Below, in pieces: positions 2,774 through 63,390 of a stretch of 64,000 nucleotides of DNA. The stretch's first letter is position 1; each line of letters opens with the position of its first letter. Source of the DNA: Candidatus Omnitrophota bacterium (lineage in GTDB: Bacteria; Omnitrophota; Omnitrophia; Omnitrophales; Aquincolibacteriaceae); NCBI GenBank assembly GCA_043821445.1, contig JBDRCT010000005.1:2593-66592 (forward strand), in the 5' to 3' direction. The position numbers were made by a program, and so were the translations under genes. Below the pieces are notes generated by a model, which did not search any database, had not been told where the DNA came from, and saw nothing but the letters and a program-made list of their open reading frames with translations.

Positions 2774-2936
2774 CGCGAGGCCGCCGCAGGCGAGCCATGG
2801 CGATCTCGTTTTTAAAAAAGATTGCTTCGTACTTGCTTTCTACTGTTGTATGTTAAAAGACGGCAAGTACAGCACTGGCTTCCAATGTAAAATTTAATGA
2901 AAGCCAGGCGCCGTCTACGCGGCTCGCAATGACTGG

Positions 2937-3725
2937 TCATGTTAGATCATCCAGCACTTTGGTCGTCACAATGAAACTCGCGTTCTTGAGGCGAAGGATG
3001 TTCTTGCCTTTCAAAACCCACTGCAGGGTCTTCAGAAATTCCGTACGGTCGGCGATATGGATCAGGGAACCCCGATAGGCCACGCTGATCTGACCGCGTT
3101 CTTCGGAGACCACGAGCGCGATCGCGTCGATTTTTTCCGTGATCCCGATCGCCGCACGGTGGCGCGTGCCGAAGCTCGGCGAAAGATCGGAAAGCGACGC
3201 AAGAGGCAGGATCCCCTTGACGGTCTGCATGCGGCCTTTGTGCACCACCAGCGCGCCGTCATGAACGGGCGACGAGGTTAAAAAAAGCGGTACAAGGATC
3301 TCGGATCTGATCTCCGCATCAAAGGGCATCCCGCCCTTCATGTGCGGACGCAGAGGCTGTTTGCACTGGAGAATGATTAGGGCACCCACTTTGCGCGATG
3401 CCATCCGTTCCATGGCCGACCAGATCTCAAGAAGATAATGCGGAAGTTGGGGTGTTTTCCGGAAAAGATTACCCACCCGCTCGGCAAGCCACAGCGCACC
3501 CGAGATCACTATGTCCGTACAAAGCAGTCCGCCCGCTATCATGAGAAACGCGATCCCGGTCCGGTGTACCACTGAAGCGTCCAGGGAGGGCACGGCAAAA
3601 AAAAGCGCCGCCCAAAGGCAGAAGATCCCCGCTAGATACTTGAGGAGTGACCTCAGCCCGGCGAGTTTGAATGGATAGAAAAAATATCCGAGCGCGACGA
3701 CAACGGCAATGACCGTAATAAGCAT
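2937..3725 (-). CDS. cdaA: diadenylate cyclase CdaA (c-di-AMP synthase), membrane-anchored
   Basis: Three N-terminal transmembrane helices are followed by a DAC domain (DGALVVHKGRMQTVKGILPLA ... GTRHRAAIGITEKIDAIALVVSEERGQISV). I chose the internal ATG at 3725 because of the GGGGAGAG Shine-Dalgarno just upstream; the ORF-track start at 3821 would add 32 aa of low plausibility. Confidence 0.85.
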   Translation of the reverse strand: MLITVIAVVVALGYFFYPFKLAGLRSLLKYLAGIFCLWAALFFAVPSLDASVVHRTGIAFLMIAGGLLCTDIVISGALWLAERVGNLFRKTPQLPHYLLEIWSAMERMASRKVGALIILQCKQPLRPHMKGGMPFDAEIRSEILVPLFLTSSPVHDGALVVHKGRMQTVKGILPLASLSDLSPSFGTRHRAAIGITEKIDAIALVVSEERGQISVAYRGSLIHIADRTEFLKTLQWVLKGKNILRLKNASFIVTTKVLDDLT

Positions 3726-3867
3726 ACTCTCCCCTTTGAAAGCTGATGAAGCCTTGCGTATAGTTACGGCTGTTGGGGATATTAATGAAGCGCGGCACAA
3801 CGCGCAAAGCGCAACGCACAACGCTGACAGGTTTGTTGTGCGTTGAGCGTAAAACGTTGCACAATGT

Positions 3868-4812
3868 TTAGGCGGTTTTACGGACGATGAGTTTGGGAAG
3901 GTACCGTTTTGAAACAGGCCCGGAGGACGGACGTTCGATCTGCCGGATCAGGATATCCACGGCATCTTTTCCCATTTGGACGAGCGGCTGACGAACGGTC
4001 GTAAGCGGAGGCGAGGAACTCTTCGCGCATTCGTTGTCGTCGAACCCGACGACCGCCATGTCCTGGGGCACGCGTTTACCGGTTTCTTTGAGAGCTTTTA
4101 ATGCTCCGAACGCAAGGTCATCGTTCCCACACACGATCGCACCGGGCAAATTCTTTTCCCGCAGCCACCTTTTCATCATGCGATAGCCTTCCGCCTCGTT
4201 GTTGGCCGCTCCCGAACGGAGCCAGGTGGGGTCGCGCAGGATATGCTGGGTCTTAAGCGCCCGGATGAACCCGCGCACCTTGAGCTGGGTATCGACAAAA
4301 GACACTTTGACCTTCCTTTGCCCCGCCCTGAACGGAACTTCCCACGGCCCGTGCAGCATCCCGATCTTCCGGCGACTCTTTTTCACAAGGTGGGCTACCG
4401 CCTGTGCCATGCCCGCATTCGTGTCGATAGAGACGCTATTCACTCGAAGACCGGGAACCGGATCATTCACAACAAGCACCCGTGTGTGGCGGGAAGTTTC
4501 GATCAATTGTGCGATCTTGGGATGGATCCATCGCCAAGTCAAGATCATAAGCCCGTCCAGTCGATGTTCCTTGAGGATCTGATCCAGACTCCCGTAGGGC
4601 CTGGCGGGCATCATGACGATCTTAAGGCGGCCCTTCACCGTCTTGATCCGGGACAAGATCCCGGAAAGAAGCCCAAGGTGATAGCTTGAGTGGAAGATTT
4701 CTTTGGCGGGAGTGGTCAGAACGCCAAAGGTTCTGCGGTATTTTTGAAAGGAAGATCCCGCGGTATGTCGCGCCCGGGACCCCGAAGCTTTATCGGTTGC
4801 CCGGATTTTCAA
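3868..4812 (-). CDS. LacI-family (periplasmic-binding-fold) ligand-binding domain protein with no recognisable N-terminal HTH
   Basis: The 314-aa ORF aligns with the sugar-binding core of LacI/PurR regulators (VVNDPVPG..., GAIVCGNDDLAFGALKALKETGKRVPQDMAVVGFDDNECAK, TTVRQPLVQMGKDAV). Only about 20 aa precede the core, and there is neither an HTH_LacI segment nor a signal peptide. Confidence 0.6.
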   Translation of the reverse strand: MKIRATDKASGSRARHTAGSSFQKYRRTFGVLTTPAKEIFHSSYHLGLLSGILSRIKTVKGRLKIVMMPARPYGSLDQILKEHRLDGLMILTWRWIHPKIAQLIETSRHTRVLVVNDPVPGLRVNSVSIDTNAGMAQAVAHLVKKSRRKIGMLHGPWEVPFRAGQRKVKVSFVDTQLKVRGFIRALKTQHILRDPTWLRSGAANNEAEGYRMMKRWLREKNLPGAIVCGNDDLAFGALKALKETGKRVPQDMAVVGFDDNECAKSSSPPLTTVRQPLVQMGKDAVDILIRQIERPSSGPVSKRYLPKLIVRKTA

Positions 4813-5275: not shown

Positions 5276-7003
5276 CTAACCGACAATCAATAAATGGCAC
5301 TCTTTGCGAAGGTTATGGGCCAGCGTTCGCAACACGTCGCCGCGCAAAAGACTGATCAGAGCGCTGCGCTTCGTGGCGCCGATCGCGACGGTTTTGACGT
5401 CGAGTTCCTGGGCCGCGCGCGCGATCAATCGGCCGGGGTTTTCCCCTACCTGCCAGATCGGGACCGCCGTAATGCCGAGTTCTTCCATCTTCTCCTGAGC
5501 TTTTCCGAGCACCTCCACGGATTCCCGCGACGGTTCCATTTCGGTCGGAAGCTCGGGCGATGGGGGTGTCTCCTCCACATAGCCCAGATAAACCGAATTC
5601 TCACCCATCGCCTTCACATGGAGGGCGGCCTCTTCAAGCAGTACCGGGTTAAAAGACTTCATGGCCACAAATGCAGAACTTTTATAAAGCGATGTGAGTT
5701 CTTTGGCTTCGGCCACCGTGAGCAAGTTGACGGTTGAAGCTAGCTCCGGCATCGTCACCGGCGCGATCATCTTGGCCGCATAACGGAGAGCAAGACCCAC
5801 TCCCAAAATGGTCAAGACGAAGAAAAGCGCGTTTTGTTTTTGGATCGCGATCGTTAGCTCGATAAAAATCGTGATCAACGCACCCGTGAACAAAAGAATA
5901 CGTTCCCAAAGTTTTAACCGGATCGAAAAATTTGTAGCGCTGGTCGCAAGATTCATGGCGATGGCCCCGACCACGCCGATCGCATAGAGTGCCGCCAAGT
6001 GAACGATATCTTTCTCCGCTAGGAGCACAATGATCGGCGCCAAGGTCGCTACAATCAGCGCAAGCCACGGCATGCCGAACCGGTTGAGTTTTGCAAAAAC
6101 CGGAGGCAATTCACGATCTTTCGCCATCGCGAACTGAATACTCACAAGACCAGTGATCGCCGTGTTCCCGGCGGAAAGAAGCAGAAAACCGAAAGCGATC
6201 GATATTACATTCCCATACCAGGGGCCAATGTAATAGTTGCCTAAAGCGCGGAGCATATCTTCAATGTGGTTTTGCAAGCCGGGAACAGCGTTCATCGCGA
6301 CCCCTAGGAGGAACGTTAGCACCGCCACTTCGATCAGAACGGGCATAATCGCGCGGCGGGCGGTCCTTTTTACGGGCTCCACCATGATTCCCGTCATGTT
6401 CGCAATCACTTCCACGCCTGAAAGCGCAAGCACGATCCCGACAAAAACCGACCAATTCTTCATAAGGCCGCTGGCGGGCAAAACCAGTTGCACATGAGGG
6501 AGATGAGGAATCGTAAAAAGAAAGAGAATGACAGCGGTCAAAGAAGCGAAGACCGCGATCACGGCCGCGACATTACCACCCTTCCCGGGGCCAACCCAAT
6601 TCATGGCACCAATCACGAGGATCGCCCCGACAGCCCAAAGCTCCGGATACGGTACGTTAAAATAATAGAAGGCTGCTAGCACACTTATGGAGACGGTCAC
6701 GGTGTAATTCGCGATAAGAAGAAAAGCCCCGATCACGGCCAGCGTTTGGGATCGTTGCTTCACCGAGGAATAAACTCCTCCGCCGTCTGGATAAATGCGG
6801 CAGACGACCATGTAACAGATCCCGATCAGGATCATGAAGAGGGACATGAGCCCGAGGAAAAACCACGAGGCGTGGCCGGCAAGGGCGAAGGCGATCCCGA
6901 GAACGTAGGCCTTCGAAGTGCCCCAATCGCCATAGAGCATGGCGCCGGCGTGATACCACTTGAGTTCGCGGGGTCTTTCGACCCGTTTGATCATAACTGC
7001 CAT
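5276..7003 (-). CDS. APC-family amino-acid/polyamine permease fused to a C-terminal universal stress protein (UspA) domain
   Basis: About 12 transmembrane helices with APC-like motifs (GAMLYGDWGTSKAYVLG) are followed by a soluble Usp-type alpha/beta domain (VAIGATKRSALISLLRGDVLRTLAHNLRKECHLLIVG). Confidence 0.7.
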   Translation of the reverse strand: MAVMIKRVERPRELKWYHAGAMLYGDWGTSKAYVLGIAFALAGHASWFFLGLMSLFMILIGICYMVVCRIYPDGGGVYSSVKQRSQTLAVIGAFLLIANYTVTVSISVLAAFYYFNVPYPELWAVGAILVIGAMNWVGPGKGGNVAAVIAVFASLTAVILFLFTIPHLPHVQLVLPASGLMKNWSVFVGIVLALSGVEVIANMTGIMVEPVKRTARRAIMPVLIEVAVLTFLLGVAMNAVPGLQNHIEDMLRALGNYYIGPWYGNVISIAFGFLLLSAGNTAITGLVSIQFAMAKDRELPPVFAKLNRFGMPWLALIVATLAPIIVLLAEKDIVHLAALYAIGVVGAIAMNLATSATNFSIRLKLWERILLFTGALITIFIELTIAIQKQNALFFVLTILGVGLALRYAAKMIAPVTMPELASTVNLLTVAEAKELTSLYKSSAFVAMKSFNPVLLEEAALHVKAMGENSVYLGYVEETPPSPELPTEMEPSRESVEVLGKAQEKMEELGITAVPIWQVGENPGRLIARAAQELDVKTVAIGATKRSALISLLRGDVLRTLAHNLRKECHLLIVG

Positions 7004-7116
7004 AAGAAGTCCTAATATAGCAGAAGCGGGCAGACAATCAATAGAGGACTGCCTCCTTCTCTATGCCGCTTTCCCATGAGCGCCTGATTTTCTATTAAAG
7101 AATGAATCGAGAAATC

Positions 7117-7247
7117 AGTCCCAATACTTATCAATTTTTGCAAAGCGGAAATTGGGGCAGTCCAAGTCATCATCATTGAAAATAAAACAAAGACTTGGGC
7201 AGTGCAGTCCTGATGGACCCTCCTGGAAATGAATGGCATCATCAGGG
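7117..7247 (+). repeat. double-hairpin structured repeat, copy A (plus a third hairpin), in the divergent intergenic region upstream of hppA
   Basis: Hairpin 1 is CCCAAT..CAATTT-loop-AAATTGGGG (7120-7157). Hairpin 2 is GTCCAAGTC, a 23-nt A-rich loop, then GACTTGGGC (7160-7200). A third hairpin, CCTGATGG...CATCAGG (7209-7246), is followed by a T-rich tract. Each hairpin is preceded by AGTCC. Confidence 0.7.
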
Positions 7248-7441: not shown

Positions 7442-9922
7442 ATGAAAAAACTTTTCACTCGACTCTCGTTTCTAGGCATGCTTTGCCTGCGGCAAGGCGC
7501 CGCATGGGCCAGTGAAGCGGATTTGAAGATCCCGGATCTTCATGAGGGGCACTTCAATCTGCTCGGCGGTCTTTCGGGCTTTCAGATCCTCCTCTATGGC
7601 GCGATAGTGATCCTCGGGACGGTCGGCCTGTCTCTCTACCAATTCATGAAGATCAAGGCGCTTCCGGCCCACAGATCGATGCTTGACATCGCGGAAACGA
7701 TCTTCCAAACCTGCAAGACCTATCTCAAGCAACAGGTCAAGTTCCTGGCGATCCTGTTCGCGATCATTGCGTGTGCGATGAGTTATTACTTCATGGGACT
7801 CCAGCATGAATCTGTGACGACTTTGGGCATGGTCCTCTTCTTCTCTATTGTCGGCATGGCAGGCTCGACGCTCGTGGCTTATTACGGGATCCGCGTCAAT
7901 ACCTACGCCAATGCCCGGACGGCTTTTGCCTCTCTGCGCGGCGTGCCGTGGGACGTTGTCAATATCCCCTTACGTGCGGGTATGTCCGTGGGTCTTTTCT
8001 TGATCTCCATTGAGCTGGTGATGATGGTGATCATCCTTCTTTTTATGCCGCGGCAGATCGTCGGCTACTGCTTCCTCGGTTTTGCCATCGGAGAATCGTT
8101 GGCAGCGAGCGCTCTTCGTATCGCGGGAGGCATTTTCACCAAGATCGCCGACATCGGTTCAGACCTCATGAAGATCGTTTTTAAGGTGAAAGAGGATGAC
8201 CCCCGCAACCCGGGCGTTATCGCCGATTGCGCGGGTGATAATGCCGGCGATTCGGTGGGTCCCACTGCCGACGGCTTTGAAACCTATGGCGTCACGGGTG
8301 TCGCGCTCATTTTCTTCATTACACTTGCCGTGAAAGATCCGACCCTCCAGGCTAAACTCATCGTCTGGATCTTCGCCATGCGTTTCCTGATGGACTTCAT
8401 GTCAGGCGTTTCGTACTTCATCAACAAGGCCATCTCGGAGCGCAAGTACAAGAATTTGAAAGAGTTCAATTTCGAGGAGCCGCTATCGCGTTTGATCATG
8501 ATCGCCACAGCACTTTGCATTACTACCTCTTACGGAATGTCGTACTTGCTTGTGGGCGACCTTCCGGACCCGACGCTGTGGTGGAAGCTTGCTTCGATCA
8601 TCGCCTGCGGAACTCTCGCGGCCTTCCTCATTCCTGAATTTACCAAGGCCTTCACTTCCTCCCACTCCAAGCATGTCAAAGAGATCGTAACAGCATCGCG
8701 CGAAGGCGGTGCATCACTAACGATCCTCTCGGGCCTTGTGGCAGGTAATTTTTCAGCATTCTGGAAAGGCATTCTGATAGCGGGCCTGATGTTTGCGGCC
8801 TTTATGATCTCAGGGATGGGGCTTCAGAACATTATGCCCCACGCCTCGATCTTTGCCTTCGGTCTCGTCGCCTATGGCTTTCTATGCATGGGCCCGGTGA
8901 ACATTGCGGTGGATTCCTACGGCCCGGTGACGGATAACGCGCAATCGATCTTCGAATTGGCCCAGACTGAGTCGATCCCCGGGATCGAAAAGGAGATCGA
9001 AAAGGATTTCGGTTTCAAACCTGACTTCAAAGTGGGTAAACACTACCTCGAAGCCAATGACTCGGCAGGCAACACCTTCAAGGCCACCGCAAAACCTGTG
9101 TTGATCGGGACCGCTGTCGCGGGTGCCACCACCATGATCTTCTCGATCATCCTGCTCTTGCAGGAGCATCTTCACTCTACGGCGGTTGCCGCCGCGGCGG
9201 GCGGGTTCGTGCCCGCGAACATCGGAGAGATCCTGCTGAACCAAAAACTTGCTCTCACAGCCGCGCCGATCTTACTCGGACTTATCTGCGGCGGAGCCGT
9301 GATCTACTGGTTCTGCGGCGCTTCGATCCAGGCCGTGACCACGGGAGCCTATTCGGCGGTGGAGTACATCAAGAAAAACATGGATCTCGACATGAAGGAA
9401 GCAAAGCGCGAGGATTCCATCAAGATCGTGCAGATCTGCACCGAGTACGCCCAAAAAGGAATGTGGAATATTTTCCTCGGGCTGCTCACGCTCACGCTCG
9501 CCTTTGCGCTGTTCGACCCCTATTTCTTTATCGCTTACCTCCTGGCCATCGCGGTCTTTGGACTTTTTCAAGCGATGTTCATGGCGAACGCCGGCGGTGC
9601 CTGGGACAATGCCAAGAAACTCGTCGAGGTCGACCTAGGAGAGAAGAACACGCCGCTTCATGCTGCCACCGTCATTGGCGACACGGTGGGAGATCCCTTC
9701 AAGGACACCACGTCGGTGTCCCTCAACCCGATCATCAAGTTCTCAACGCTCTTCGGTATGCTCGCCGTCGAGATCGCGATCAAGATGAACCCGGCAACGA
9801 CCCGCATCAGCGGAGCGGTCTTTTTCATTACAGGACTGTGCTTTGTGTGGAGGTCCTTTTACCGGATGCGGATCCCGAAGCTGGCGACCCCGCCGGCAGA
9901 GACAAAAGCCCTGATTGTTTAG
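7442..9922 (+). CDS. hppA: membrane-bound proton-translocating inorganic pyrophosphatase (V-PPase), predicted K+-independent
   Basis: The 826-aa protein carries the GVIADCAGDNAGDSVGPTADGFETYGVTG and GDTVGDPFKDTTSVSLNPIIKF signatures. GNTFKATAK has Lys at the A/K position that correlates with K+ independence. There is an extra N-terminal hydrophobic segment. Confidence 0.9.
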   Translation: MKKLFTRLSFLGMLCLRQGAAWASEADLKIPDLHEGHFNLLGGLSGFQILLYGAIVILGTVGLSLYQFMKIKALPAHRSMLDIAETIFQTCKTYLKQQVKFLAILFAIIACAMSYYFMGLQHESVTTLGMVLFFSIVGMAGSTLVAYYGIRVNTYANARTAFASLRGVPWDVVNIPLRAGMSVGLFLISIELVMMVIILLFMPRQIVGYCFLGFAIGESLAASALRIAGGIFTKIADIGSDLMKIVFKVKEDDPRNPGVIADCAGDNAGDSVGPTADGFETYGVTGVALIFFITLAVKDPTLQAKLIVWIFAMRFLMDFMSGVSYFINKAISERKYKNLKEFNFEEPLSRLIMIATALCITTSYGMSYLLVGDLPDPTLWWKLASIIACGTLAAFLIPEFTKAFTSSHSKHVKEIVTASREGGASLTILSGLVAGNFSAFWKGILIAGLMFAAFMISGMGLQNIMPHASIFAFGLVAYGFLCMGPVNIAVDSYGPVTDNAQSIFELAQTESIPGIEKEIEKDFGFKPDFKVGKHYLEANDSAGNTFKATAKPVLIGTAVAGATTMIFSIILLLQEHLHSTAVAAAAGGFVPANIGEILLNQKLALTAAPILLGLICGGAVIYWFCGASIQAVTTGAYSAVEYIKKNMDLDMKEAKREDSIKIVQICTEYAQKGMWNIFLGLLTLTLAFALFDPYFFIAYLLAIAVFGLFQAMFMANAGGAWDNAKKLVEVDLGEKNTPLHAATVIGDTVGDPFKDTTSVSLNPIIKFSTLFGMLAVEIAIKMNPATTRISGAVFFITGLCFVWRSFYRMRIPKLATPPAETKALIV

Positions 9923-10032: not shown

Positions 10033-10965
10033 TTAACCGTTTGTAAACTCCTCTGATTTTAGAGGCCAAACGATAGACGCGATCACCGAAAGCACCAAGA
10101 TAAATAATATTGTTCCGAGCGTCCACGCGGTGGGGATATGATAAAAATGTGAAAGAAGCATTTTGAAACCGATCAGAACCAGAATAAGCGAAAGGCCGTA
10201 ATGTAAATGATGAAAAAGACGCATCAACCCCGCGAGGGCAAAATAAAGCGCCCGGAGCCCCAGTATCGCGAACACGTTTGAGGTATAAACAATAAACGGA
10301 TCCCGTGAGATCGAAAGAATCGCCGGGATCGAGTCCACGGCAAACACCACGTCCGTGGTTTCAATCACGATCAGAACCGCGATGAGGGGTGTTGCAAAAA
10401 GAAAGCCGTTCTTTCTTATAAAAAACCGCCCTTCTTCATCGTACAGTTCGGTAATCCGCATGATTTTTCTGAAACCCTTCAGGAAAATATTTTTTTCCGG
10501 ATCAACTTTTTGATCCTTTTGCGACACAAGCTTAACGCCGGTCCAGATAAGGATCACGCCGAAGACATAGATTATCCAATGAAAATGGCGGATCGCCTCG
10601 AGCCCGAGAGCGATAAAGATCCCGCGGGTCACAAGGGCCCCAAGAATTCCCCAGAAGAGGATCTTGTGCTGAAAGCGACCGGGTAAATGAAAATATTTGA
10701 AGACCAGAAGGAAAACAAAAAGATTGTCGACACTCAACGACTTTTCGAGGATATACCCCGCCAGAAACTGCATGGCAGGCTCTTTTCCCTTGAGCCAATA
10801 AATGCCGAGATTGAACAACGAGGCCACAGCGATCCATACCGCGCTCCAGATCAAAGCCTCCCGCATCTTGACCTCATGCGCCTTACGATGGAAAACCCCA
10901 AGGTCCAGGACAAGCAGAATCAAAACAATCCCGCCAAAAATCGACCAGGCCAATACTTCGGACAT
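10033..10965 (-). CDS. terC: TerC/Alx-family integral membrane protein
   Basis: The 310-aa protein has about 9 transmembrane helices and TerC motifs (LSVDNLFVFLLVF, ILGLRALYFALAGLMRLFHHLHYGLSLILV). Confidence 0.85.
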   Translation of the reverse strand: MSEVLAWSIFGGIVLILLVLDLGVFHRKAHEVKMREALIWSAVWIAVASLFNLGIYWLKGKEPAMQFLAGYILEKSLSVDNLFVFLLVFKYFHLPGRFQHKILFWGILGALVTRGIFIALGLEAIRHFHWIIYVFGVILIWTGVKLVSQKDQKVDPEKNIFLKGFRKIMRITELYDEEGRFFIRKNGFLFATPLIAVLIVIETTDVVFAVDSIPAILSISRDPFIVYTSNVFAILGLRALYFALAGLMRLFHHLHYGLSLILVLIGFKMLLSHFYHIPTAWTLGTILFILVLSVIASIVWPLKSEEFTNG

Positions 10966-11122
10966 GTTGTTTCTCTTTAAAACCGGTTAGATGAACTGTT
11001 CTTTAAACAAAAAAAAGGATCGGGGGCATTCTCTCCATATACCAAGAAGGCCGACCCACGAAGGGTCGGCCTTCTTGCGTATTCTATCTGAAATAAAAAC
11101 AATCTGCAACGCCGACGGGATT

Positions 11123-11215
11123 AGTCCCAATCCCCTTCAATTTCAACAAAGTTGAAATTGGGGCAATCCTTGTCATCCATTAAGGAACTAAAATTCAAGA
11201 CAAGGATAGTGCTCG
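11123..11215 (+). repeat. double-hairpin structured repeat, copy B
   Basis: Hairpin 1 is CCCAAT..CCAATTTCAAC-aaa-GTTGAAATTGGGG, with a perfect 11-bp inner stem. Hairpin 2 is ATCCTTGTC, a 23-nt A-rich loop, then GACAAGGAT, with AA/TT to TT/AA compensatory changes relative to copy A. Confidence 0.7.
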
Positions 11216-11342
11216 GTTCGGACCGCAGATTAGCCCGCCCGCTCCGTCAAGAAGCCGGGTTCACCTTTTCTTTTCTCCCGTTCCCCGAAACACCGGGTAT
11301 TAGGCGATCATGCCCCTGCCCCGGAAGGGCAGGCAGCAAGTC

Positions 11343-11567
11343 TTACATCGCTGCTTCTTCCTCAGCTTCGGCCTTGGCATCCTTCGCGGTCTCCGGAGCG
11401 TAGAGCTCATCCACTTCAACGGCATCGCCGACAATATCACCGGTCGCCGCATCTTCCGCCACAGCAACCGTTTCATCAATGACAACGGGTTCCTGTTCAG
11501 CGGCAAACGCAAAAGCCGGGCAAAGCATCGTCATCACCAAAAAACTTACCACTAGTTTGCTTTTCAT
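11343..11567 (-). CDS. small secreted acidic protein (signal peptide, Ala/Glu/Asp-rich)
   Basis: The 74-aa ORF begins with an MKSKLVVSFLVMTMLCPAFAFAA signal peptide. A CCCTGCC/GGGCAGG hairpin sits immediately after its stop. Confidence 0.4.
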   Translation of the reverse strand: MKSKLVVSFLVMTMLCPAFAFAAEQEPVVIDETVAVAEDAATGDIVGDAVEVDELYAPETAKDAKAEAEEEAAM

Positions 11568-12079
11568 ATCCTTCTATTCTCCTTTTTATGTTGCTTTTTT
11601 CGCGACGCAGCCCGGAAATTCTCTGGGTTTTGTGAGGCGGTACTGCCCTTGTCTTCTTTTCATTTCCTGAACGGTCGACAAGGACTGCCCTGATGACCCG
11701 TTTATTTTAAATAAATGAGAATCAGGACTGCACCATCGCTCGAACGATTTCCTTTAACTCTGAATGGGTATAAAAAAACGCCTTTGAGTCCCAAGCAATA
11801 CCCCGCGCTTGCAGGTCATCACTCAAAACTAAAGACGTCTTTGATCCATTTTCCACGTCATCCGAAGGGCTCGAATCCTTCCGATGCCACCCCTCTGAAC
11901 TTCGGGGCTCTTTCGGGCTGCACCTCACTATTGTTATCGACTTCTAAGGAGAAGTGTACGATGGAAAACACTTCATGTCAAACAAGTGAAGCTTTTTTTC
12001 AATCGGTCCCACAGAGAGATTCTGCTGAGACAAAAAGACGCAGTAACACATAACCTATTTATTCTAAACGGGTTATAGA

Positions 12080-13720
12080 CTAAATATTCCTTCGTTTGTC
12101 TGAAACCCAGAATTCCATTCTCCTGTTGAGCATGAGCCGTGTCTGGGCGTCCAAAGCAGGCATGGCGCTCAGAAAAACAAGGATAAAAGGGACCAGGAAC
12201 CACTCCAGGCCATGGATCAAAGTCCAAAAAAACGAGAACTTTTTCTTCTTCTCGGGAAGGAGGCGGAGGCTCATGACAATAGTCCCCAAAAGAGCGATCG
12301 TGGAGAGCCCAAAGATGGCTTGGGTAAACCGGCCCGCATTGTAGTAAAGGACGGTGTTCGAGAATTCATTGCCGGCAGAGATCGCAGGAAGCCATCCCAC
12401 AAAAGTCAGCAGGAACGGCAGGGCCGCCCAAGTCACTTGCCCCTCAAAAAGCTTGAAACCATGCTGCAGTTTGTCGTAAAAAGATATTTTTTTATTCGCC
12501 AGGAACCCGCGCATCACAAGCGGAAAATTCTCCACACCCCACGCCCATCGTCTTTTTTGCTTGTAGAGACTCCCCAGGGTCCCCCACCAGGAACCCGCAT
12601 CCACGATATCCATGGACAGAGTCATCGGCATCGGAACGACTTGATATTGCCCGTCGAAGTAAAGGTAGGATTTCCAAAAGATCCCGGAATCTTCCGAGAT
12701 CATGTCCGCGGACCAATACCCCACTTCCACGAGTGCTTTAAAACTCATGCTATGGCTCGAGAAAGTCACGAGTTTTTTCGGATCTGTGGTCTCGATCAGT
12801 TGGAAAAAAGAAGAACCCGTCTCGACAACACGCGCGAACCCTGGAACTTCCCAGATATTGTTGTGGAAAACAGGAACGGGTTGGAAACTCGCCCGGTGCC
12901 GGTCGGGGCAATTCATGAAACAATAGGTCAGACAGGCAAAGTAATCAGGACCCACCACCGTATCCGCATCAAAACAGGAAACGATCACATTCTCGAACGG
13001 GATCTTGTTCTTCTCAAAATATTTCGCCGCGGCCTTCGCCGCATGACTTGTGTTAGCGCCTTTCACGCGCGCTTCGCCGGGAAGGCCGTCCGGATGTTCC
13101 ACCACGAGGAACTCCATGAACCGGTCGCGGTGCTCCTCCGCGATCTTCGCCATCCCTTCTCTCACGGATTGCTGCGCCCTCGCTTCCACCGCAAGCGCAA
13201 TGATCGTCTTCCGGGCAAAAGCTTTATTCTGCGCTACGCTCAGGACGTTCGCCTCCACCACCGACGGAGATTCTTTGACTACGGGGATCACGACCAAATG
13301 GAAGATCTCCGACGATCGCGGCGGGATATTCCCCGATTCTTTCAAACGTTCCATATCTTTCCGATGCACCCAACGAGAGATCCGTTGATGCCAGTTTTTC
13401 CCGGAACACACCTTCCGGATTTCTGCGGGGTAAGCATCGAGTCGATCCATCCCACGAATACGCCCGAGCCAATCCGTATCCTTCTCGATCGAAAGCCTGG
13501 CATAAGAAAGAAAAAGAAAGATCGTCAGATAAAAAAGCCTCAGGACCCAGGCCAACATAAAAGCGATCACCGTGATCGCGGCGATCAAGGGCGCCCAGAT
13601 CGAAAGCGCTACCAGCCCCAGGATCAAGGTCCAGCTGGCCAGACCCGGAAGCGTTTCGAAGAAACGCTGGAGCAAGATTTCTTTTTTGTTCAAACCCTGT
13701 CGCGAATAACGGAATTTCAT
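12080..13720 (-). CDS. membrane-embedded processive family-2 glycosyltransferase (cellulose/chitin/hyaluronan-synthase-like)
   Basis: The 546-aa protein has two N-terminal and about four C-terminal transmembrane helices. It carries a DxD motif (SCFDADTVV) and the QxxRW motif (QKRRWAWG) typical of processive beta-glycan synthases. It overlaps the upstream PEGA gene by 4 nt. Confidence 0.7.
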   Translation of the reverse strand: MKFRYSRQGLNKKEILLQRFFETLPGLASWTLILGLVALSIWAPLIAAITVIAFMLAWVLRLFYLTIFLFLSYARLSIEKDTDWLGRIRGMDRLDAYPAEIRKVCSGKNWHQRISRWVHRKDMERLKESGNIPPRSSEIFHLVVIPVVKESPSVVEANVLSVAQNKAFARKTIIALAVEARAQQSVREGMAKIAEEHRDRFMEFLVVEHPDGLPGEARVKGANTSHAAKAAAKYFEKNKIPFENVIVSCFDADTVVGPDYFACLTYCFMNCPDRHRASFQPVPVFHNNIWEVPGFARVVETGSSFFQLIETTDPKKLVTFSSHSMSFKALVEVGYWSADMISEDSGIFWKSYLYFDGQYQVVPMPMTLSMDIVDAGSWWGTLGSLYKQKRRWAWGVENFPLVMRGFLANKKISFYDKLQHGFKLFEGQVTWAALPFLLTFVGWLPAISAGNEFSNTVLYYNAGRFTQAIFGLSTIALLGTIVMSLRLLPEKKKKFSFFWTLIHGLEWFLVPFILVFLSAMPALDAQTRLMLNRRMEFWVSDKRRNI

Positions 13721-15174
13721 TTCGCGGCTCCCTGGGATTCCTTTTCCAGCTCGTTGATCACACCGGAAAAAGTGATGCCTTCCGGAAGAATATCCGCCAC
13801 CACCAGCTCTCCCCGGGAGGATTCCAGATAATAAAGTTTCCCGGTCCTCTCAGAGTAAAAGATCCCGCTTCCCTCCCGCACCGTAACGATCCTCTCCGGA
13901 GGGATCCCGTACTCTCCCACACGGGAAAGAAACACTTTGTTCTGATCACAGAAGAGAATAGAGTCCGCATCATGAACAAAATAAGCCTGACGGATATCAT
14001 GACCGTTCTCAATGGCCCATTCGATCTCGGGCCCGCGCTCGAAAAACTCTTTTCTCCGCTCAGGTCTCTCAAAATCCAGCACGCCGACCCGCTCCTTCTG
14101 CCACAGCACGATCTTCCGACCATCCGTACCGGCCTGATACCCTCGCATTCCTTCCTCCACGAAATGATAAGGCAGCGCGTTCGAGAAAAGCTCTCCCAGC
14201 TCCCCGTAAAAAACGACCGCATTATTCGAAATAAAATCGATCCTGTATTTTCCAGCGCTTTTAAAAAGATTTTCGAGAAAAATGCCTTTCTCCACCAACA
14301 CCTCTTCCCCTTTCTTGGCGTTGAAACCCAAGCGAACGATCGAGGACCCGCGAAGAGCGTAAACTTTATTCTTGAAAAGCCCGAAACCCCGGATCTTTGA
14401 AAGAAAATCAGGGAGCACTATCATTTTCACGAGGTCCAATCGCGAAAGGTCCTGACCCTGCCATACAAAGAGATAGTCGGGATGGTCGCCCTCCCATAAG
14501 ATTTCGTAAGGTTCTCCTTTCACAAAAAGACCCGAGAGGTCCTTGACTTCCGGTCCTTCCTTATCGAGCTGACACCCCAGGAATTTCATACCCTCGGAAG
14601 TCTCCACTTGAAGGATGACGAAAGAGCTCTCCTTGACCCTGAAAATCTTGATGAGTTTCGCGACCGCGAAAGAAGATGTCCCCGGAAGAACGGAGCGGAG
14701 AATTTCATTTTTCCAATCAAATACCTTCAAATCTCCGGCATGCCCCGCGCCTTTGAGAAGCAGGTAACGCGTCCCAGGGACGGGCAACAGGTCTTCAAAA
14801 GGCTCGGCGACCAGGGTCCGGGCCTTGATGCTCTGCGGGACCAACAGGACTTTTTCAAGATTGACGGCCTTCCCCGGATCCACTTTGACCTTTCGCTCCC
14901 AGGGTCTGTAACCACGTAGAAAGATTTTCACATCGTAGGGACCGGGAAGAAGATTCCGGATCGTGGCGGGCGTCCTTTCGATATAACGTTTATTCCCGAT
15001 TGAGAGAAAAGCATTCGGAGGAAGTGTCTCGATGTGGATCAATCCTGTCTTGGCAAACCCCTCTTCGACTTTGGGCGTGAAAATATAGCCAAGCGCATAG
15101 AGGATAATCATCGGGCACAGAACAAGATAGAGCGCAAAAAAAAGATAAAAAAGGATCTTTCTAAAAATGATCAT
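13717..15174 (-). CDS. membrane-anchored PEGA-domain protein
   Basis: The 485-aa protein has one N-terminal transmembrane helix, then a PEGA-like beta-sandwich (LPPNAFLSIGNKRYIERTPATIRNLLPGPYDVKIFLRGYRPWERKVKV), then a large uncharacterised domain. It is translationally coupled to the GT2 synthase. Confidence 0.55.
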   Translation of the reverse strand: MIIFRKILFYLFFALYLVLCPMIILYALGYIFTPKVEEGFAKTGLIHIETLPPNAFLSIGNKRYIERTPATIRNLLPGPYDVKIFLRGYRPWERKVKVDPGKAVNLEKVLLVPQSIKARTLVAEPFEDLLPVPGTRYLLLKGAGHAGDLKVFDWKNEILRSVLPGTSSFAVAKLIKIFRVKESSFVILQVETSEGMKFLGCQLDKEGPEVKDLSGLFVKGEPYEILWEGDHPDYLFVWQGQDLSRLDLVKMIVLPDFLSKIRGFGLFKNKVYALRGSSIVRLGFNAKKGEEVLVEKGIFLENLFKSAGKYRIDFISNNAVVFYGELGELFSNALPYHFVEEGMRGYQAGTDGRKIVLWQKERVGVLDFERPERRKEFFERGPEIEWAIENGHDIRQAYFVHDADSILFCDQNKVFLSRVGEYGIPPERIVTVREGSGIFYSERTGKLYYLESSRGELVVADILPEGITFSGVINELEKESQGAAK

Positions 15175-15275
15175 GGCGCTTTATTATGCCATAATCTGCC
15201 CCCACCCTCCAAGCTTCCCAAATTCATTCTCTGAGAGAGGTAAAGGCGCTCGGAACCTTTGCCGATGTTTACGTT

Positions 15276-15908
15276 ATGATGAACTCTCTCGATTTTGCGA
15301 TCCTTTCGTTCACCTCCCTTTTTGTCATTGTGGATCCGGTAGGGATCATTCCCTCCTTTTTGGCCATGACCCAGAAAAACACGACTCCGGAACGGATCCG
15401 CATGGCCCAGTGGGCTTCTCTCATCACGTTCGGCATTCTGATCCTGAGCTTCTTCTTCGGCCAGCGGCTTCTCACGGTGTTTGGGATCACGCTCCCGGCT
15501 TTTGAGATCGCCGGAGGCATTGTCCTTCTCCTCGTAGCCCTCGATATGCTGCGGGCACGGCGCACGGCCATGAAGGAAACTCAGGAAGAAAAGGCCGAAG
15601 GCATCGACAAACATGATGTTGCCATCACCCCTTTGGGGATCCCGATGCTCGCCGGCCCGGGCGCCATCACCGCGGTCATTCTGCTGTCGAACAAAGCCGG
15701 AACATTCGGGAATCACGTGATCCTGGCAGGCACGATCTTCCTCGTCTCAGCGCTCACACTCCTGGTTCTCTCGACCGTTGCCGTCCGCTCCCAAATATTC
15801 AGCACGATCGCCCTCAAGATCATGGCGCGTCTCATGGGCCTGATCCTCGCCGCGATCGCAGTTCAGTTCATTTTGAACGGTATCCTGGCGGCCCGCCTTT
15901 TCAGCTGA
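15276..15908 (+). CDS. marC: MarC-family (UPF0056) integral membrane protein
   Basis: The 210-aa protein has six transmembrane helices and the typical MarC N-terminus (FAILSFTSLFVIVDPVGIIPSFLAM). Confidence 0.85.
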   Translation: MMNSLDFAILSFTSLFVIVDPVGIIPSFLAMTQKNTTPERIRMAQWASLITFGILILSFFFGQRLLTVFGITLPAFEIAGGIVLLLVALDMLRARRTAMKETQEEKAEGIDKHDVAITPLGIPMLAGPGAITAVILLSNKAGTFGNHVILAGTIFLVSALTLLVLSTVAVRSQIFSTIALKIMARLMGLILAAIAVQFILNGILAARLFS

Positions 15909-27246: not shown

Positions 27247-27321
27247 ATGCCCTTCACCTGGCTTTCATTCTATTAAAATAAAAGTTCATTGACCCGATTT
27301 TTTCCGATATCCCTATCCTCG

Positions 27322-27390
27322 ACTAGTTTTTTAATTGCAAACTAGTGTTGTCCAAGTCATCGTTCAAAAAAATAAAATTAAGACTTGGGC
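27322..27390 (+). repeat. double-hairpin structured repeat, copy C
   Basis: Hairpin 1 is ACTAGTTT-tttaattgc-AAACTAGT. Hairpin 2 is GTCCAAGTC, a 23-nt A-rich loop, then GACTTGGGC, identical in its stems to copy A. It spans the stop codon of the 27378..27743 gene and lies 75-140 nt upstream of the receiver gene. Confidence 0.65.
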
Positions 27391-27743
27391 TGTTTATTGA
27401 AGGACTTGTTGAAATCCTGCCATTGCTGCGCGAGTTCCTTCTGAATCTGCTGGGTCTTTTCCTGGAGTTGTTTGGCAAGCGCATCCCATTGCTGCTGAAG
27501 TGTTTTAACGGTTTCCTGGACCTCGGCTTCCACCTTCTTGGAAGACTCAGCGACCTTTATGGCCCCCGTCGAAAGACCCTCACCGGCCGTGTCCTTCAAC
27601 TCCCGGGCCACCTCACCTGCCTGCCTGCCAAGGCTTTGGGGCGCGGCCTGGGTCCCAAGAGAAGCCTGCTCGTCCGCCGCATAAACCATCCCGGCTACAG
27701 CAAAGATCATGGCAACTGTGAATGCTACAAGTTTATATTTCAT
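27378..27743 (-). CDS. secreted coiled-coil protein (signal peptide, Gln/Lys-rich)
   Basis: The 121-aa protein begins with an MKYKLVAFTVAMIFAVAGMVYA signal peptide. A GGAGG Shine-Dalgarno precedes the start. No family recognised. Confidence 0.5.
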   Translation of the reverse strand: MKYKLVAFTVAMIFAVAGMVYAADEQASLGTQAAPQSLGRQAGEVARELKDTAGEGLSTGAIKVAESSKKVEAEVQETVKTLQQQWDALAKQLQEKTQQIQKELAQQWQDFNKSFNKQPKS

Positions 27744-32140: not shown

Positions 32141-32249
32141 ACACATCATGTTCTACCTCCTGCTTACTACGAAAGAATTGTGCCCTATGTCGAACGGTTT
32201 GTCAAAGTTTATTTTAGCGCCGGCGGAGGTTCTCCGTTGTAAAGAAAAT

Positions 32250-32336
32250 GGTCCCAATACCTATCAATTTTCACGCAGTGGAAATTGGGGCCATCCTTGT
32301 CTGTCATTTAAGAAAAAAATCCAAGACAAGGATAGA
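32250..32336 (+). repeat. double-hairpin structured repeat, copy D, in the divergent csp / kinase-like intergenic region
   Basis: Hairpin 1 is CCCAAT..CAATTTTCAC-gcag-GTGGAAATTGGGG, with one T:G wobble on the plus strand. Hairpin 2 is ATCCTTGTC, a 23-nt A-rich loop, then GACAAGGAT. Confidence 0.7.
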
Positions 32337-32447
32337 TGGAGATATAATGCCTTTCGCTCTCTCATACGTTCGCATCTTAACCACCCTCATAGGGGGGCGA
32401 GCTAGAGTGCTTGCCTGTCCCTTGAGAGTACAAAAGAACAGGCTCCT

Positions 32448-33446
32448 ATGACGACACGCCGGGAAAGGTTACGCCGAAGATTCTCCGAATTCCGGTCGAA
32501 GTTCGCCGGACACATGCAAAAGGTCCGTCCTCGTGTCGCATTCAAGATCCTCGCCGGCACCGTGATCCTGTTCCCCTGGATGGCCGGTTCTCTTATGATC
32601 AGCGTTTTCAAGATCGGCTACTGGCGCAAGATCGCGAACTGCCAGACTTTTCTCAGCCGGCACGCACTCGCCTTTGACGGCATCGACCCGAAAACTCTCA
32701 CTGTGGAGTCCGTCTCAGGAGGGGTCAGCAATTTCAATCAGACGTGGCGGTGTCGAAAGAACACGGGAGAAGAGATCCGTTATTTCGTTAAGATCTTCCT
32801 CGATGCCGGAAGTTTTTGGGCCAAGCATCTCAGTTTTGTCAGCCCGTTTCCCGCCGTTTACGGCGGCAAGACCCACGAACGCTTTACCGTGGACGTGGTC
32901 AGCCGCGTCCAGCTCGACAAGATCGGCGTCCCGGTCCCGCGCCTCATCGCCTACGATGCGGTTGAAAAAGTCATGGTCACTGAACACATCGAAGGAGAGA
33001 CGGTCGATTCGGTCCTGGAGCGCATCGGTGAACGTCGGACGCTGGGTCCTGGGGATGAGGCCGTGCTCCGGCAATGTGCGATCGGCCTGGCGAAGATCCA
33101 CCGGGCGGGTTTTTCATTGATCGATACTCAGCCCGTCAACTGCATCTGGGTCGCGGTGGAGCAAAAGGTCTACTTCACGGACCTGGAGTTTTGCGGCAGT
33201 CAGGATAAAAGGGTGTGGGACATCGGATTCTTCTTGTGTTTCATCGCCGTGCGGCTTTCCGGCGCGGTGCGGCAAGAGGTACGCAATATTTTTCTGGAAA
33301 GTTACCAGAAAGAACGCCAGGTCGATCTTGCCCAGGTCACGGAAACCGGCCTCCAACTGCAGGAATATATGCCGGTCTTTCAAGCCGTCCTTGATATCCG
33401 CCGTTTCACCCCCGAAGAGCTCTTCGAAGGTCTCATTTCCACTTAA
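32448..33446 (+). CDS. membrane-anchored protein-kinase-like fold protein (Kdo/WaaP lipopolysaccharide-kinase family-like)
   Basis: An N-terminal transmembrane helix is followed by a kinase-like catalytic loop (IHRAGFSLIDTQPVNCIW) and a DFG-like segment (YFTDLEF). The family assignment was made by eye. Confidence 0.45.
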   Translation: MTTRRERLRRRFSEFRSKFAGHMQKVRPRVAFKILAGTVILFPWMAGSLMISVFKIGYWRKIANCQTFLSRHALAFDGIDPKTLTVESVSGGVSNFNQTWRCRKNTGEEIRYFVKIFLDAGSFWAKHLSFVSPFPAVYGGKTHERFTVDVVSRVQLDKIGVPVPRLIAYDAVEKVMVTEHIEGETVDSVLERIGERRTLGPGDEAVLRQCAIGLAKIHRAGFSLIDTQPVNCIWVAVEQKVYFTDLEFCGSQDKRVWDIGFFLCFIAVRLSGAVRQEVRNIFLESYQKERQVDLAQVTETGLQLQEYMPVFQAVLDIRRFTPEELFEGLIST

Positions 33447-51683: not shown

Positions 51684-51731
51684 GGAATCTCCTGCCCCCA
51701 ATTATATCAAGCGATCAGGTGGGTCTTTGAA

Positions 51732-52697
51732 CTAAGATGATTGAATTTTTTCATAAAGTTGTGCGGCTAAATCTTTGTTGAGATTATTTAATATTGCGTA
51801 CTGTTTTAACGCAGAGTCTTTCTTATGAAGAGATAAATGTGCCATTCCAAGATTGTAATAGGCCATAGCATTCCGAGCATCCAGGGAGAGGGCCTTGTCA
51901 AAAAGCTCGATCGCTTTTTGGGCATCATCTTTCTGGAGGTAGACATTACCCAAACCGGCGTAAGCATTAGAATCCTTGTCGTTCAAGGAGACGGCCTTGT
52001 CAAAAGACTCGATCGCTTTTTGGGCATCACCTTTCCGGAGGTAGGCATTCCCCAAACTGGCGTAAACATTGGAATCCTTGGCGTTCAAGGAGACGGCCTT
52101 GTTAAAAGACTCGATGGCTTTGTCGGCATTGCCTTGGCTGGAATAGATATTACCCAAACCGACATAACTATAGAGATCCTGTGGATTCAGGGAGAGGGCC
52201 TTGTTATAAGACTCGATCGCTTGATCGGCATTGCCTTGGCTGAAATAGATATTGCCCAAACCGACGTAAGCACTGGAATCTTCGGCAGCCAAGGAGATGG
52301 CTTTGTTATAACACTCGATCGCTTTATCGAGATTGCCTTTTCGGAAATAGAGATTACCTAAACCGCCGTAAGCATAGAGATTTTCCGGATCCAGGGAAAT
52401 GGCCTTGTCAAAAGACTCGATCGCTTTGTCGAGATCGCCTCTCCTGGAATAGAGATTACCCAGATCGACGTAAGCAAAGAGACTCTCCGGGTCCAGGGAA
52501 ATGGCCTCATGGAAGGATTCGATCGCTTTATCGCTGTCGCCCTTTGCCGCCTCTTCCCTCCCCGCGATAATACACTGGTCTGCCGTGACAACATTTTCTG
52601 CATCGGCTGCATAACTGCTTGGATGACTACAAATAAAAAATACTATGGGGGCCAAAAATACTAGGTTTATGGGTCTAAAAAACGAGTGTTTTTTCAT
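51732..52697 (-). CDS. secreted TPR-repeat protein (paralog 1)
   Basis: The protein has an MKKHSFFRPINLVFLAPIVFFICSHPSSYAA signal peptide and about 7 TPR units (AYVDLGNLYSRRGDLDKAIESFDKAISLDP...). Its C-terminus is conserved with the paralogs at 62154 and 62732. Confidence 0.75.
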   Translation of the reverse strand: MKKHSFFRPINLVFLAPIVFFICSHPSSYAADAENVVTADQCIIAGREEAAKGDSDKAIESFHEAISLDPESLFAYVDLGNLYSRRGDLDKAIESFDKAISLDPENLYAYGGLGNLYFRKGNLDKAIECYNKAISLAAEDSSAYVGLGNIYFSQGNADQAIESYNKALSLNPQDLYSYVGLGNIYSSQGNADKAIESFNKAVSLNAKDSNVYASLGNAYLRKGDAQKAIESFDKAVSLNDKDSNAYAGLGNVYLQKDDAQKAIELFDKALSLDARNAMAYYNLGMAHLSLHKKDSALKQYAILNNLNKDLAAQLYEKIQSS

Positions 52698-52782
52698 GGT
52701 TGATCCCTCGCCTAAGTGGTCTGTTGCCGAAGCGAAATTGCCTGTTTGTTCTCGCTCTCTTCCGTAAACGATTGGACGGGAC

Positions 52783-61387: not shown

Positions 61388-61520
61388 GACGCCCGATTAT
61401 CATAAATTTTTCAACCGGAAATCGGTGCTGTCCTTGGCGCCCTGGCTCTCATTAAAAAATTAACAGTTAGCCAGGACAGTCCAGGTCGCCCTTTATGAAA
61501 AGAAAACAAAGACCTGGACG
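61388..61520 (+). repeat. double-hairpin structured repeat, copy E (a composite with an extra inserted hairpin)
   Basis: The hairpin 1 homolog, CCCGAT..AAATTTTTCAACCGGAAATCGGTG, aligns with copy A and has A>G / T>C compensatory changes. An extra CCTGGCT...AGCCAGG hairpin (61441-61475) is inserted. Hairpin 2 is GTCCAGGTC, a 23-nt A-rich loop, then GACCTGGAC (61479-61519). Confidence 0.65.
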
Positions 61521-61554
61521 ACCATTAAGAAAAAGAAATAAACGACAAGGACGC

Positions 61555-61947: not shown

Positions 61948-62153
61948 TTTATCTCCCATTTCATTCAGGCACCGGGATGGCCCGGTACCACTGCCCCACT
62001 ATCATGACACGGCAGGGATGAAATGGCTAACAAAAGTGCTGGCGCTCCTATTTCGTGGCCTCTAAAAATACGAAGGCCGCCGGGGTGATCCCCCGGTGGC
62101 CTTTTGTGTGACTCCATTTCCAGGCTGCCCTTGCAGAAGGCGCCTGCTTTGGG

Positions 62154-62612: not shown

Positions 62613-62731
62613 TTTTGATCTCTCTCATGAGTTATTTGTTACCGAAGCGAAACTGCCTAACGGTTGTTCCCTCACTCAGCGGATGGTTCGACAGCAGGTT
62701 GCCCTCCCTGAGGGCGCCTATTTTGGTACGC

Positions 62732-63304: not shown

Positions 63305-63390
63305 TTTTAATCCCTCGCCTAAGTTGTTTGTTGCCAAAGCAAAATAATCAGCTTGTTCTTCCCCTTTTCAAGGGACAGCTTTTTGGGATA

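Follow-up and report, generated by a model that had tools for sequence, protein, structure and literature searches.

A predicted c-di-AMP riboswitch upstream of terC in Candidatus Omnitrophota carries a copy of a dispersed two-hairpin repeat within its aptamer

We analysed a stretch of 64,000 nucleotides, hereafter called the window, from a Candidatus Omnitrophota bacterium (GenBank assembly GCA_043821445.1, contig JBDRCT010000005.1), with emphasis on copy B, a two-hairpin repeat located 158-250 nt upstream of the start codon of terC, a gene of the TerC/Alx family. The evidence indicates that terC is probably controlled by a cyclic di-AMP (c-di-AMP) riboswitch coupled to a terminator, with copy B as a mobile-repeat insert that is tolerated as a passenger. 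An initial annotation of the same DNA had described this region as an Alx-like regulatory leader containing copy B and a GC-rich hairpin. A structured, riboswitch-type leader that contains copy B is indeed found upstream of terC, both in the window and in orthologous loci; the class proposed for it was wrong, and copy B appears to be a passenger rather than the sensor.

Results

The terC leader is predicted to be a divergent c-di-AMP riboswitch

Leaders were compared in a sample of 80 TerC loci fetched from metagenomes (designated by L numbers), among which close orthologues were defined by a TerC protein at least 67% identical. All close orthologues have the same leader, which lies ~100 nt upstream of terC. 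Using Rfam 15, we found that the c-di-AMP riboswitch family RF00379 (gathering score, GA, 38 bits) matches, over the whole length of the model (1-134), the region that directly precedes terC in all close orthologues tested. Scores exceed GA in L096 (51.6 bits) and L104 (40.9 bits) and lie below it in L113 (37.4), L111 (33.1), L107 (32.2), L110 (31.9), L114 (31.9), L098 (30.7) and L106 (28.1). The leader of L081, which is free of copy B, aligns in terC sense to the whole model, scoring 20.5 bits.

For the window itself, R2, a covariance model (CM) that we built from the terC leaders, gives two matches on the minus strand, at 11184-11316 (104.9 bits) and 11095-11175 (29.5 bits), split exactly at copy B. 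The window leader is assigned to RF00379 because it is homologous to the uninterrupted orthologues.

The secondary structure of the aptamer comprises 26 pairs, and 93.2% of positions are paired across 23 distinct leaders. In P2, each of the five main pairs has double compensatory changes, and P1, P3 and P6 are conserved with changes from G-C to G-U only. The GAA and CUAA junction motifs, as well as P4-P6, agree with the RF00379 family in the alignment. The arrangement in cis is constant in ~20 loci, the aptamer ending ~20 nt before a terminator hairpin and ~135 nt before the start of terC. In an alignment of the window with the syntenic loci L095 (88% identity), L056 and L081, the non-coding region 11040-11340 is almost invariant. 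Paralogues of the leader were not found upstream of other genes in 92 other Omnitrophota loci, nor was the leader found upstream of the more distant TerC genes L117-L175.

Taken together, these comparisons identify the terC leader, at the level of sequence and predicted structure, as a divergent member of the c-di-AMP (ydaO/yuaA, RF00379) riboswitch class, with c-di-AMP as its likely ligand by analogy with that class. Because the window also encodes a diadenylate cyclase with a DAC domain, the organism can make the presumed ligand. If the riboswitch is in use, transcription of terC is very unlikely to start downstream of 11120, as such a start would divide the aptamer.

A GC-rich hairpin downstream of the aptamer is the intrinsic terminator

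The GC-rich hairpin that the initial annotation placed between copy B and terC is present as a GGCCGACCC/GGGTCGGCC hairpin at 11050-11078, and belongs to a longer 15-bp GC-rich stem, CAAGAAGGCCGACCC-UUCGU-GGGUCGGCCUUCUUG. It is found ~20 nt after the aptamer in all orthologues, where its sequence varies and its stem is kept. Substitutions in the hairpins of L081, L104 and L113 are compensatory or yield G.U, and the altered positions can pair in terC-sense orientation only. The stem of L096 is unrelated and is followed by a clear U-run; the hairpin of L106, also different in sequence, is followed by UUUUUU. The conserved place, the kept stem, the sense-only G.U pairs and the U-runs mark the GC-rich hairpin as part of the terC leader, namely as the intrinsic terminator of the riboswitch.

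The leader on the minus strand would thus read aptamer (11316-11100), linker of ~20 nt, terminator (11077-11043), ~77 nt, and terC start. By analogy with characterised members of the class, binding of c-di-AMP would lock P1, P3 and the pseudoknot, the terminator would form and transcription of terC would stop, which corresponds to an OFF switch. In the window, a 6-nt candidate antiterminator, GUCGGC in the 3' strand of the aptamer with GCCGAC in the 5' arm of the terminator, was rejected as it is not kept in L056 or L096.

Copy B interrupts the aptamer at a single-stranded junction

The region 11123-11215 of the window reads AGTCCCAATCCCCTTCAATTTCAACAAAGTTGAAATTGGGGCAATCCTTGTCATCCATTAAGGAACTAAAATTCAAGACAAGGATAGTGCTCGG. 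Hairpin 1 of copy B contains a perfect 10-bp palindrome, CAATTTCAAC-AAA-GTTGAAATTG, nested within an outer pairing GTCCCAAT/ATTGGGGC, and hairpin 2 has arms ATCCTTGTC/GACAAGGAT around a 24-nt A-rich loop.

The basal aptamer is ~135 nt long and reads ...GGUCCGAACCGAGAA-CUAAUCCCGUCGGCG in L104. Where L104 and others have the uninterrupted junction ...CCGAACCGAGAA|CUAAUCCCG, the window has GAGCA-CUA-(element)-CUA-AUCCCG, or more fully ...GAACCGAGCA-CUA-(UCCUUGUC...AUUGGGA)-CUA-AUCCCGUCGGCG. Copy B is therefore an antisense insert of ~85 nt at the single-stranded junction that links P4-3' to P3-3'. CUA has been duplicated and borders the insert at either end; because of this duplication, the conserved CUAAUCCCG segment stays intact. 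As the initial annotation had noted, copy B lies on the 'wrong' strand for its family, and it is hence carried, as its reverse complement, in the terC-sense transcript. Copy B is not the regulatory core of the leader but a dispersed-repeat insertion: it is found in the window, in L095 and in L056/L103 (the same event), and is absent from L081 and ~12 other orthologues, that is, from most orthologous leaders.

The same leader has been altered repeatedly in related genomes. L105 retains only a remnant of copy B (AAGAAUUGGGA) along with a hairpin-2-like unit in the P6 loop. Exactly at the copy B site, (A)ACUA is duplicated in L108 (+5 nt) and L101 (+8 nt), possibly as excision footprints, with slippage as the alternative. 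An unrelated GC hairpin lies near the copy B junction in L081/L102. Antisense copies or variants of the repeat are found in or just after the terC terminator at L110:1000-1096, where the insert splits the 3' arm of the terminator, and at L101:2148-2240. At least three separate insertion events have occurred in the terC riboswitch/terminator. Separately, L056 (~4040-4130, aligned to ~11290 of the window) and L103 carry an unrelated insert of ~86 nt in the P2 loop, with the palindrome CAATTGAAATTATTAATTTCAATTG.

The interrupted riboswitch has been retained after the insertion

The three species with copy B differ at 12-22% of coding positions. Relative to the window, the 3' part of the aptamer is 100% identical in L095 and 96% in L056, and the terminator 95% and 89%, respectively; the aptamer halves are 82-100% identical across the three species. 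Downstream of the terminator, identity of the 5' untranslated region (UTR) falls to 40% (L095) and 25% (L056). Because the aptamer and the terminator were kept while the adjacent 5' UTR decayed, we consider that the riboswitch has been under selection after the insertion.

Folding predictions are consistent with this. RNAfold keeps both hairpins of the reverse complement of copy B as independent domains, and enforcing P1 together with P3 costs only ~4 kcal/mol relative to the unconstrained optimum. The two adjacent hairpins draw the ends of the insert close to each other, so that the aptamer junction can close. In the history proposed here, copy B would be foreign to the ancestral riboswitch: a mobile double hairpin of ~85 nt would have integrated antisense at the junction CUA, and in the leader RNA would fold as two adjacent hairpins around which the aptamer core still closes. 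Copy B is most likely a tolerated, presumably neutral, passenger domain of the terC leader RNA.

Several observations weigh against this proposal. The junction occupied by copy B is conserved in the RF00379 family (consensus GuCAGCUAA), and ligand binding by the interrupted aptamer may have been lost or changed. The leader of the window matches RF00379 only partially, with 13 bits, because copy B splits the aptamer, and most orthologous leaders score just below GA. The U-tract after the terminator of the window is weak, no convincing conserved antiterminator was found in the leaders, and the leader may be co-transcribed with a small gene upstream. Finally, copy B is about as conserved as the aptamer (97% identical to the window in L095, 85% in L056), which could mean that it has acquired a role.

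The broken junction and the low score of the window leader would fit an aptamer killed by the insertion, leaving a dead riboswitch that is constitutively terminated or read through and in which copy B is merely disruptive. We regard this as unlikely, as it is at odds with the unequal decay of riboswitch and 5' UTR across the three species and with the duplicated CUA that leaves the CUAAUCCCG segment whole.

Copy B might instead have been co-opted as a leader module, for example as a platform for binding of a protein or RNase or as a folding timer, which comes closest to the idea of the initial annotation. Conservation of copy B at the level of the aptamer speaks for such a role, as do the antisense copies that L110 and L101 acquired independently in this leader, within the terminator or behind it. 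Most orthologous leaders, however, work without any insert; near this site, an unrelated GC hairpin is found in L081 and only a remnant in L105, and the strand that is structured family-wide is the opposite one (see below). Co-option therefore has, in our judgement, only a small chance of being correct, and we retain the tolerated passenger as the working description of copy B.

Copy B belongs to a repeat family specific to Omnitrophota

A covariance model, R1, was made from five plus-strand copies found in the window by repeat finding and alignment, for which RNAalifold gives two helices with compensatory changes. R1 detects 6 strong and 3 weaker copies of this ~95-nt repeat in the 64 kb. It recovers copy B and others far beyond chance, confirming copy B as a true copy of a repeat as initially annotated, and an exact 37-mer of copy B has 0 matches in 100 shuffles. 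One of the weak copies, copy H, lies at 2819-2913 (minus strand), just downstream of the diadenylate cyclase gene. Rfam 15 holds no family for copy B: no match reaches the gathering score in the window and nothing relevant appears at E <= 10 around copy B.

We scanned one genome per species from 185,579 species with a degenerate pattern for hairpin 2. Of the 95 stretches that matched, 94 come from ~17 Candidatus Omnitrophota metagenome-assembled genomes (MAGs), and the remaining one is probably a chance match. Applied to the corresponding 95 loci of 8 kb, R1 finds more than 200 copies, often several per locus and sometimes in tandem or compound arrays. Because the window contains ~1 copy per 10 kb, a genome probably harbours hundreds of copies.

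An alignment of 150 copies shows 97.5% of stem cells paired, with double changes at 16 of 17 pairs; shifting the partner column abolishes the signal. Each hairpin has the form TCC...GGR, and YNG triplets lie between and beside the hairpins. The triplet at the 5' flank equals the triplet at the 3' end in 86 of 125 copies (28.8 expected), mainly as TAG, CGG or CAG. Furthermore, within the 3' triplet the first position forms a pair with a base inside the element (columns 100-164), without a single mismatch in 148 copies, which suggests matching to a target rather than a random or classical target-site duplication.

A U.G wobble closes the base of hairpin 1 in 118 of the 150 copies, and hairpin 2 has U.G in 42 of them. 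These wobbles identify the folding strand as the strand of the model, which is the plus strand for copy B. They do not separate a role as RNA from one as DNA, since G.T is tolerated in single-stranded DNA too. Copy B could accordingly act on the plus strand, as a small RNA with its own transcription that is antisense to the terC leader, or as single- or double-stranded DNA serving as a site for REP-like protein binding or recombination, and not through the terC mRNA; the excess of antisense over sense orientation among co-directional intergenic copies (40 versus 14, from crude open reading frame (ORF) calls and with orthologous copies counted repeatedly) points in the same direction. We nevertheless rate this as very unlikely. 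The region 10900-11900 contains no sigma-70-like promoter and no terminator accompanies copy B or the other copies; orientation bias is weak (66:50 with respect to GC skew, 58:42 with respect to the coding strand); four copies (A, C, D and F) precede genes in sense orientation; and nothing links a DNA-level function to terC.

Other explanations of the repeat were considered and rejected. A reverse-strand mini-gene ('DKDCPNFxFxEIDKYWD') has a frame open in most copies, but it has no conserved start and often an upstream in-frame stop, and no conserved ORF was found on either strand of the repeat, which is taken as non-coding. An integron attC or CRISPR-like array does not fit the spacing of copies (4-29 kb) or their contexts. 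The orientation bias given above is too weak for the replication strand to be its cause.

Empty and filled sites indicate mobility

Comparison of empty and filled sites reveals one triplet in the former and two in the latter in three clean cases, namely copy B (CUA), copy F (CAG) and an extra copy in L081 (CTG). Copy F is cleanly missing in L056, where a single GCAGT is left, and the extra copy of L081 lies between F and the small gene, at a place where the window has a single CAG. In addition, L061:4680-4840 and L095:1835-2083 share a compound array of repeat modules of ~165 nt, with CTG/CTA joints; the two minus-strand genes that it separates share 4 nt in the window, where they lie at 13717-15174 and 15171-15716 (site 15170-15180). 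The ends of the repeat have only TCC...GGA in common as terminal inverted repeats, each end being its own hairpin. On these grounds the family is best described as a lineage-specific, non-autonomous mobile element of the type of repetitive extragenic palindromic (REP) sequences and miniature inverted-repeat transposable elements (MITEs), a classification drawn from sequence comparison.

As for a possible mobilising enzyme, a REP-associated tyrosine transposase (RAYT) gene is located at L086:6021-6689 (minus strand; NF047646 81.2 bits, Pfam Y1_Tnp 46 bits), in the MAG that also contains L056. Identical hairpins with a 12-bp stem, GGGGACAGGCTGA...TCAGCCTGTCCCC, border this gene at ~5986-6040 and 6725-6780, and a third copy of the hairpin lies at L086:442. 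This is a different repeat, which shares with the two-hairpin repeat only the end motifs GGGA|CAG / CTG|TCCC. With this RAYT as query, no convincing second RAYT was found in the fetched loci, and tblastn with an IS200 TnpA sequence gave no match.

We also considered whether copies B and F might be inverted termini of one composite element with the 74-aa gene between them; this was rejected, F being kept in many species that have no B, and B being inside the riboswitch. Copy F is present in most orthologous loci (L095, L081, L101, L102, L105, L108, L113 and L114), with 89-92% identity in L095 and L081, and F may have gained a role in the 5' region of the small gene.

The leader is not of the metal- or pH-responsive type

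The least probable reading, hardly credible on present evidence, is an Alx-like leader for Mn2+ (yybP-ykoY) or alkaline pH (pH-responsive element, PRE) built on copy B and the GC hairpin: although the terC product belongs to NCBIfam TIGR03718 'R_switched_Alx' (403 bits; cut-off 246), a family whose genes usually have yybP-ykoY upstream (PMC5737381), no yybP-ykoY, terC-motif or other metal-riboswitch match was found at E <= 10 on either strand of 10900-11350, no yybP-ykoY or other TerC-type leader reaches the gathering score, whether in the window or among 20 orthologous loci, and the conserved core is an RF00379 homologue from which copy B is missing in most orthologues.

Other features of the window

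Coordinates are collected in Table 1. The small gene upstream of the riboswitch is conserved in L095, L056 and L081 at 80-87% nucleotide identity and matches no Pfam or NCBIfam family; it is ~25 codons longer in these three loci, the window showing a 75-nt gap in the alignment. No known leader RNA was detected at copy A and the pyrophosphatase gene.

GC skew of the plus strand is negative throughout the window (1-64000), between -0.02 and -0.13, and the minus strand carries most genes. The window accordingly belongs to a single replichore, in which the minus strand is the G-rich one. Long tandem repeats are present within minus-strand ORFs at 46490-48520, 51720-52740 and 62140-63350, with periods of 147/684 nt and 102 nt; the blocks at 51.7 kb and 62-63 kb are related to each other.

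Table 1. Positions of the terC leader, the repeat copies and selected genes in the window
Feature	Position	Strand	Basis or remark
Copy B, two-hairpin repeat	11120-11217	+	CM 90.8 bits, E = 1.5e-19
Copy B with flanking triplets	11122-11209	+	Element proper 11125-11206; hairpin 1 11125-11163; hairpin 2 11166-11207
Direct repeats of copy B, TAG (CUA in terC sense)	11122-11124 and 11207-11209	+	Comparison of basal and filled junction
Predicted c-di-AMP (ydaO-type) riboswitch aptamer, interrupted by copy B	11100-11316	-	Model R2; RF00379 matches in orthologues
Aptamer P1	11303-11306 with 11110-11113	-	CGCC/GGCG in alignment
Aptamer P2	11282-11298	-	Covaries
Aptamer P3	11276-11281 with 11115-11120	-	ACGGGA/UCCCGU in alignment
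Aptamer P5	11238-11259	-	
Aptamer P6	11220-11236	-	
Aptamer P4-3' (GAACC)	11215-11219	-	
Pseudoknot, P6 loop AAUCUGC with tail GCAGAUU	11225-11231 with 11101-11107	-	At the pseudoknot position of the RF00379 family
Intrinsic-terminator hairpin, expression platform	11043-11077	-	15-bp stem, then weak U-tract
terC/alx, TerC/Alx family metal-homeostasis membrane protein	10033-10965	-	Pfam TerC 172.7 bits
Small gene, 74 aa, signal peptide and acidic tail	11343-11567	-	ORF list; stop ~20 nt before riboswitch
Copy F	11635-11732	-	CM 68.6 bits; sense, ~68 nt upstream of small gene 11343-11567
Diadenylate cyclase (DAC domain)	2937-3821	-	Motif search; Pfam PF02457 118.4 bits
Copy A	7114-7210	+	CM 96.7 bits; ~230 nt upstream, sense, of pyrophosphatase gene
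Na+-translocating (Na+/H+-) pyrophosphatase gene	7442-9922	+	Pfam H_PPase; NF001950 1268 bits
Copy C	32247-32343	+	CM 90.6 bits; ~105 nt upstream of ORF 32448-33446 (+)
Copy D	27305-27400	+	CM 80.8 bits
Copy E	61435-61529	+	CM 85.2 bits

Discussion

This work describes three things that we consider new: an Alx-type TerC gene under a predicted c-di-AMP riboswitch, a REP/MITE-like repeat family, and a natural insertion inside a riboswitch aptamer. Regulation of terC in this clade is reassigned from the expected Mn2+ or pH leader to a c-di-AMP riboswitch, implying that c-di-AMP signalling would reach TerC-type membrane or metal homeostasis in an uncultivated phylum. Full-text literature searches returned no paper joining c-di-AMP riboswitches with TerC and none on repeats of Omnitrophota.

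The interrupted leaders also constitute a natural experiment, in which an aptamer junction carries a foreign double hairpin of ~85 nt across species, and may be useful for riboswitch engineering. For annotation, they show that interrupted aptamers are missed by standard models. The repeat, previously undescribed and abundant in one Candidatus Omnitrophota clade, can mark the lineage and offers a way into the mechanism of its mobilisation.

A bolder proposal goes beyond the tolerated passenger: the double hairpin would be a new kind of non-autonomous element, which chooses its site by a 3-nt match to its own end, since the flanking triplet covaries with an internal base, which favours structured leader DNA and is tolerated there, and which in the lineage of the window would have become an integral, selected part of the c-di-AMP riboswitch. 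We think this unlikely. If true, it would amount to a composite regulator through which c-di-AMP signals reach metal or pH homeostasis of the TerC/Alx type.

Compared with known c-di-AMP riboswitches, the terC leader has the full-length CM matches (in the orthologues), the P1-P6 layout, the pseudoknot between P6 loop and 3' tail, the 5' position and the terminator of RF00379. It differs in its divergent sequences, in the mobile insert between P4-3' and P3-3', and in the gene controlled, which here is a TerC of the Alx subfamily. Reported targets of the class are transporters for K+ and amino acids, cell-wall genes and osmotic-stress genes (PMC7266159); for TerC genes, the usual association is with Mn2+ riboswitches or the terC motif (PMC5737381). 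With yybP-ykoY, the alx PRE and the terC motif, the leader has in common a structured 5' region with a terminator upstream of a TerC/Alx gene; there is no match in sequence or structure, the aptamer fold is another one and so is the presumed ligand.

The repeat resembles REPs, bacterial interspersed mosaic elements (BIMEs) and REPINs (paired REPs) in being short, non-coding and mostly intergenic, with imperfect palindromes that form clustered, modular hairpins and are strand-asymmetric (G.T). A bona fide RAYT gene (NF047646) is present in a repeat-carrying MAG (L086); this one RAYT is flanked by a different hairpin. The Omnitrophota repeat further departs from REPs as a fixed pair of different hairpins with an A-rich loop of ~24 nt, and it has no GTAG tetranucleotide as such. 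Instead, it ends with a matched 3-nt direct repeat (TAG, CAG, CGG), a feature that to our knowledge has not been described for REPs.

Correia elements, enterobacterial repetitive intergenic consensus (ERIC) sequences and Rickettsia palindromic elements (RPEs) are non-autonomous elements of ~100 nt with RNA hairpins and short direct repeats, which vary between related genomes; RPEs can sit inside functional sequences without destroying them. The Omnitrophota repeat differs from these MITE-like elements in that its ends share only TCC...GGA as inverted sequence and that its triplet base pairs internally. It is like them in its length of ~100 nt, its hairpins, its short direct repeats and its variable presence between genomes.

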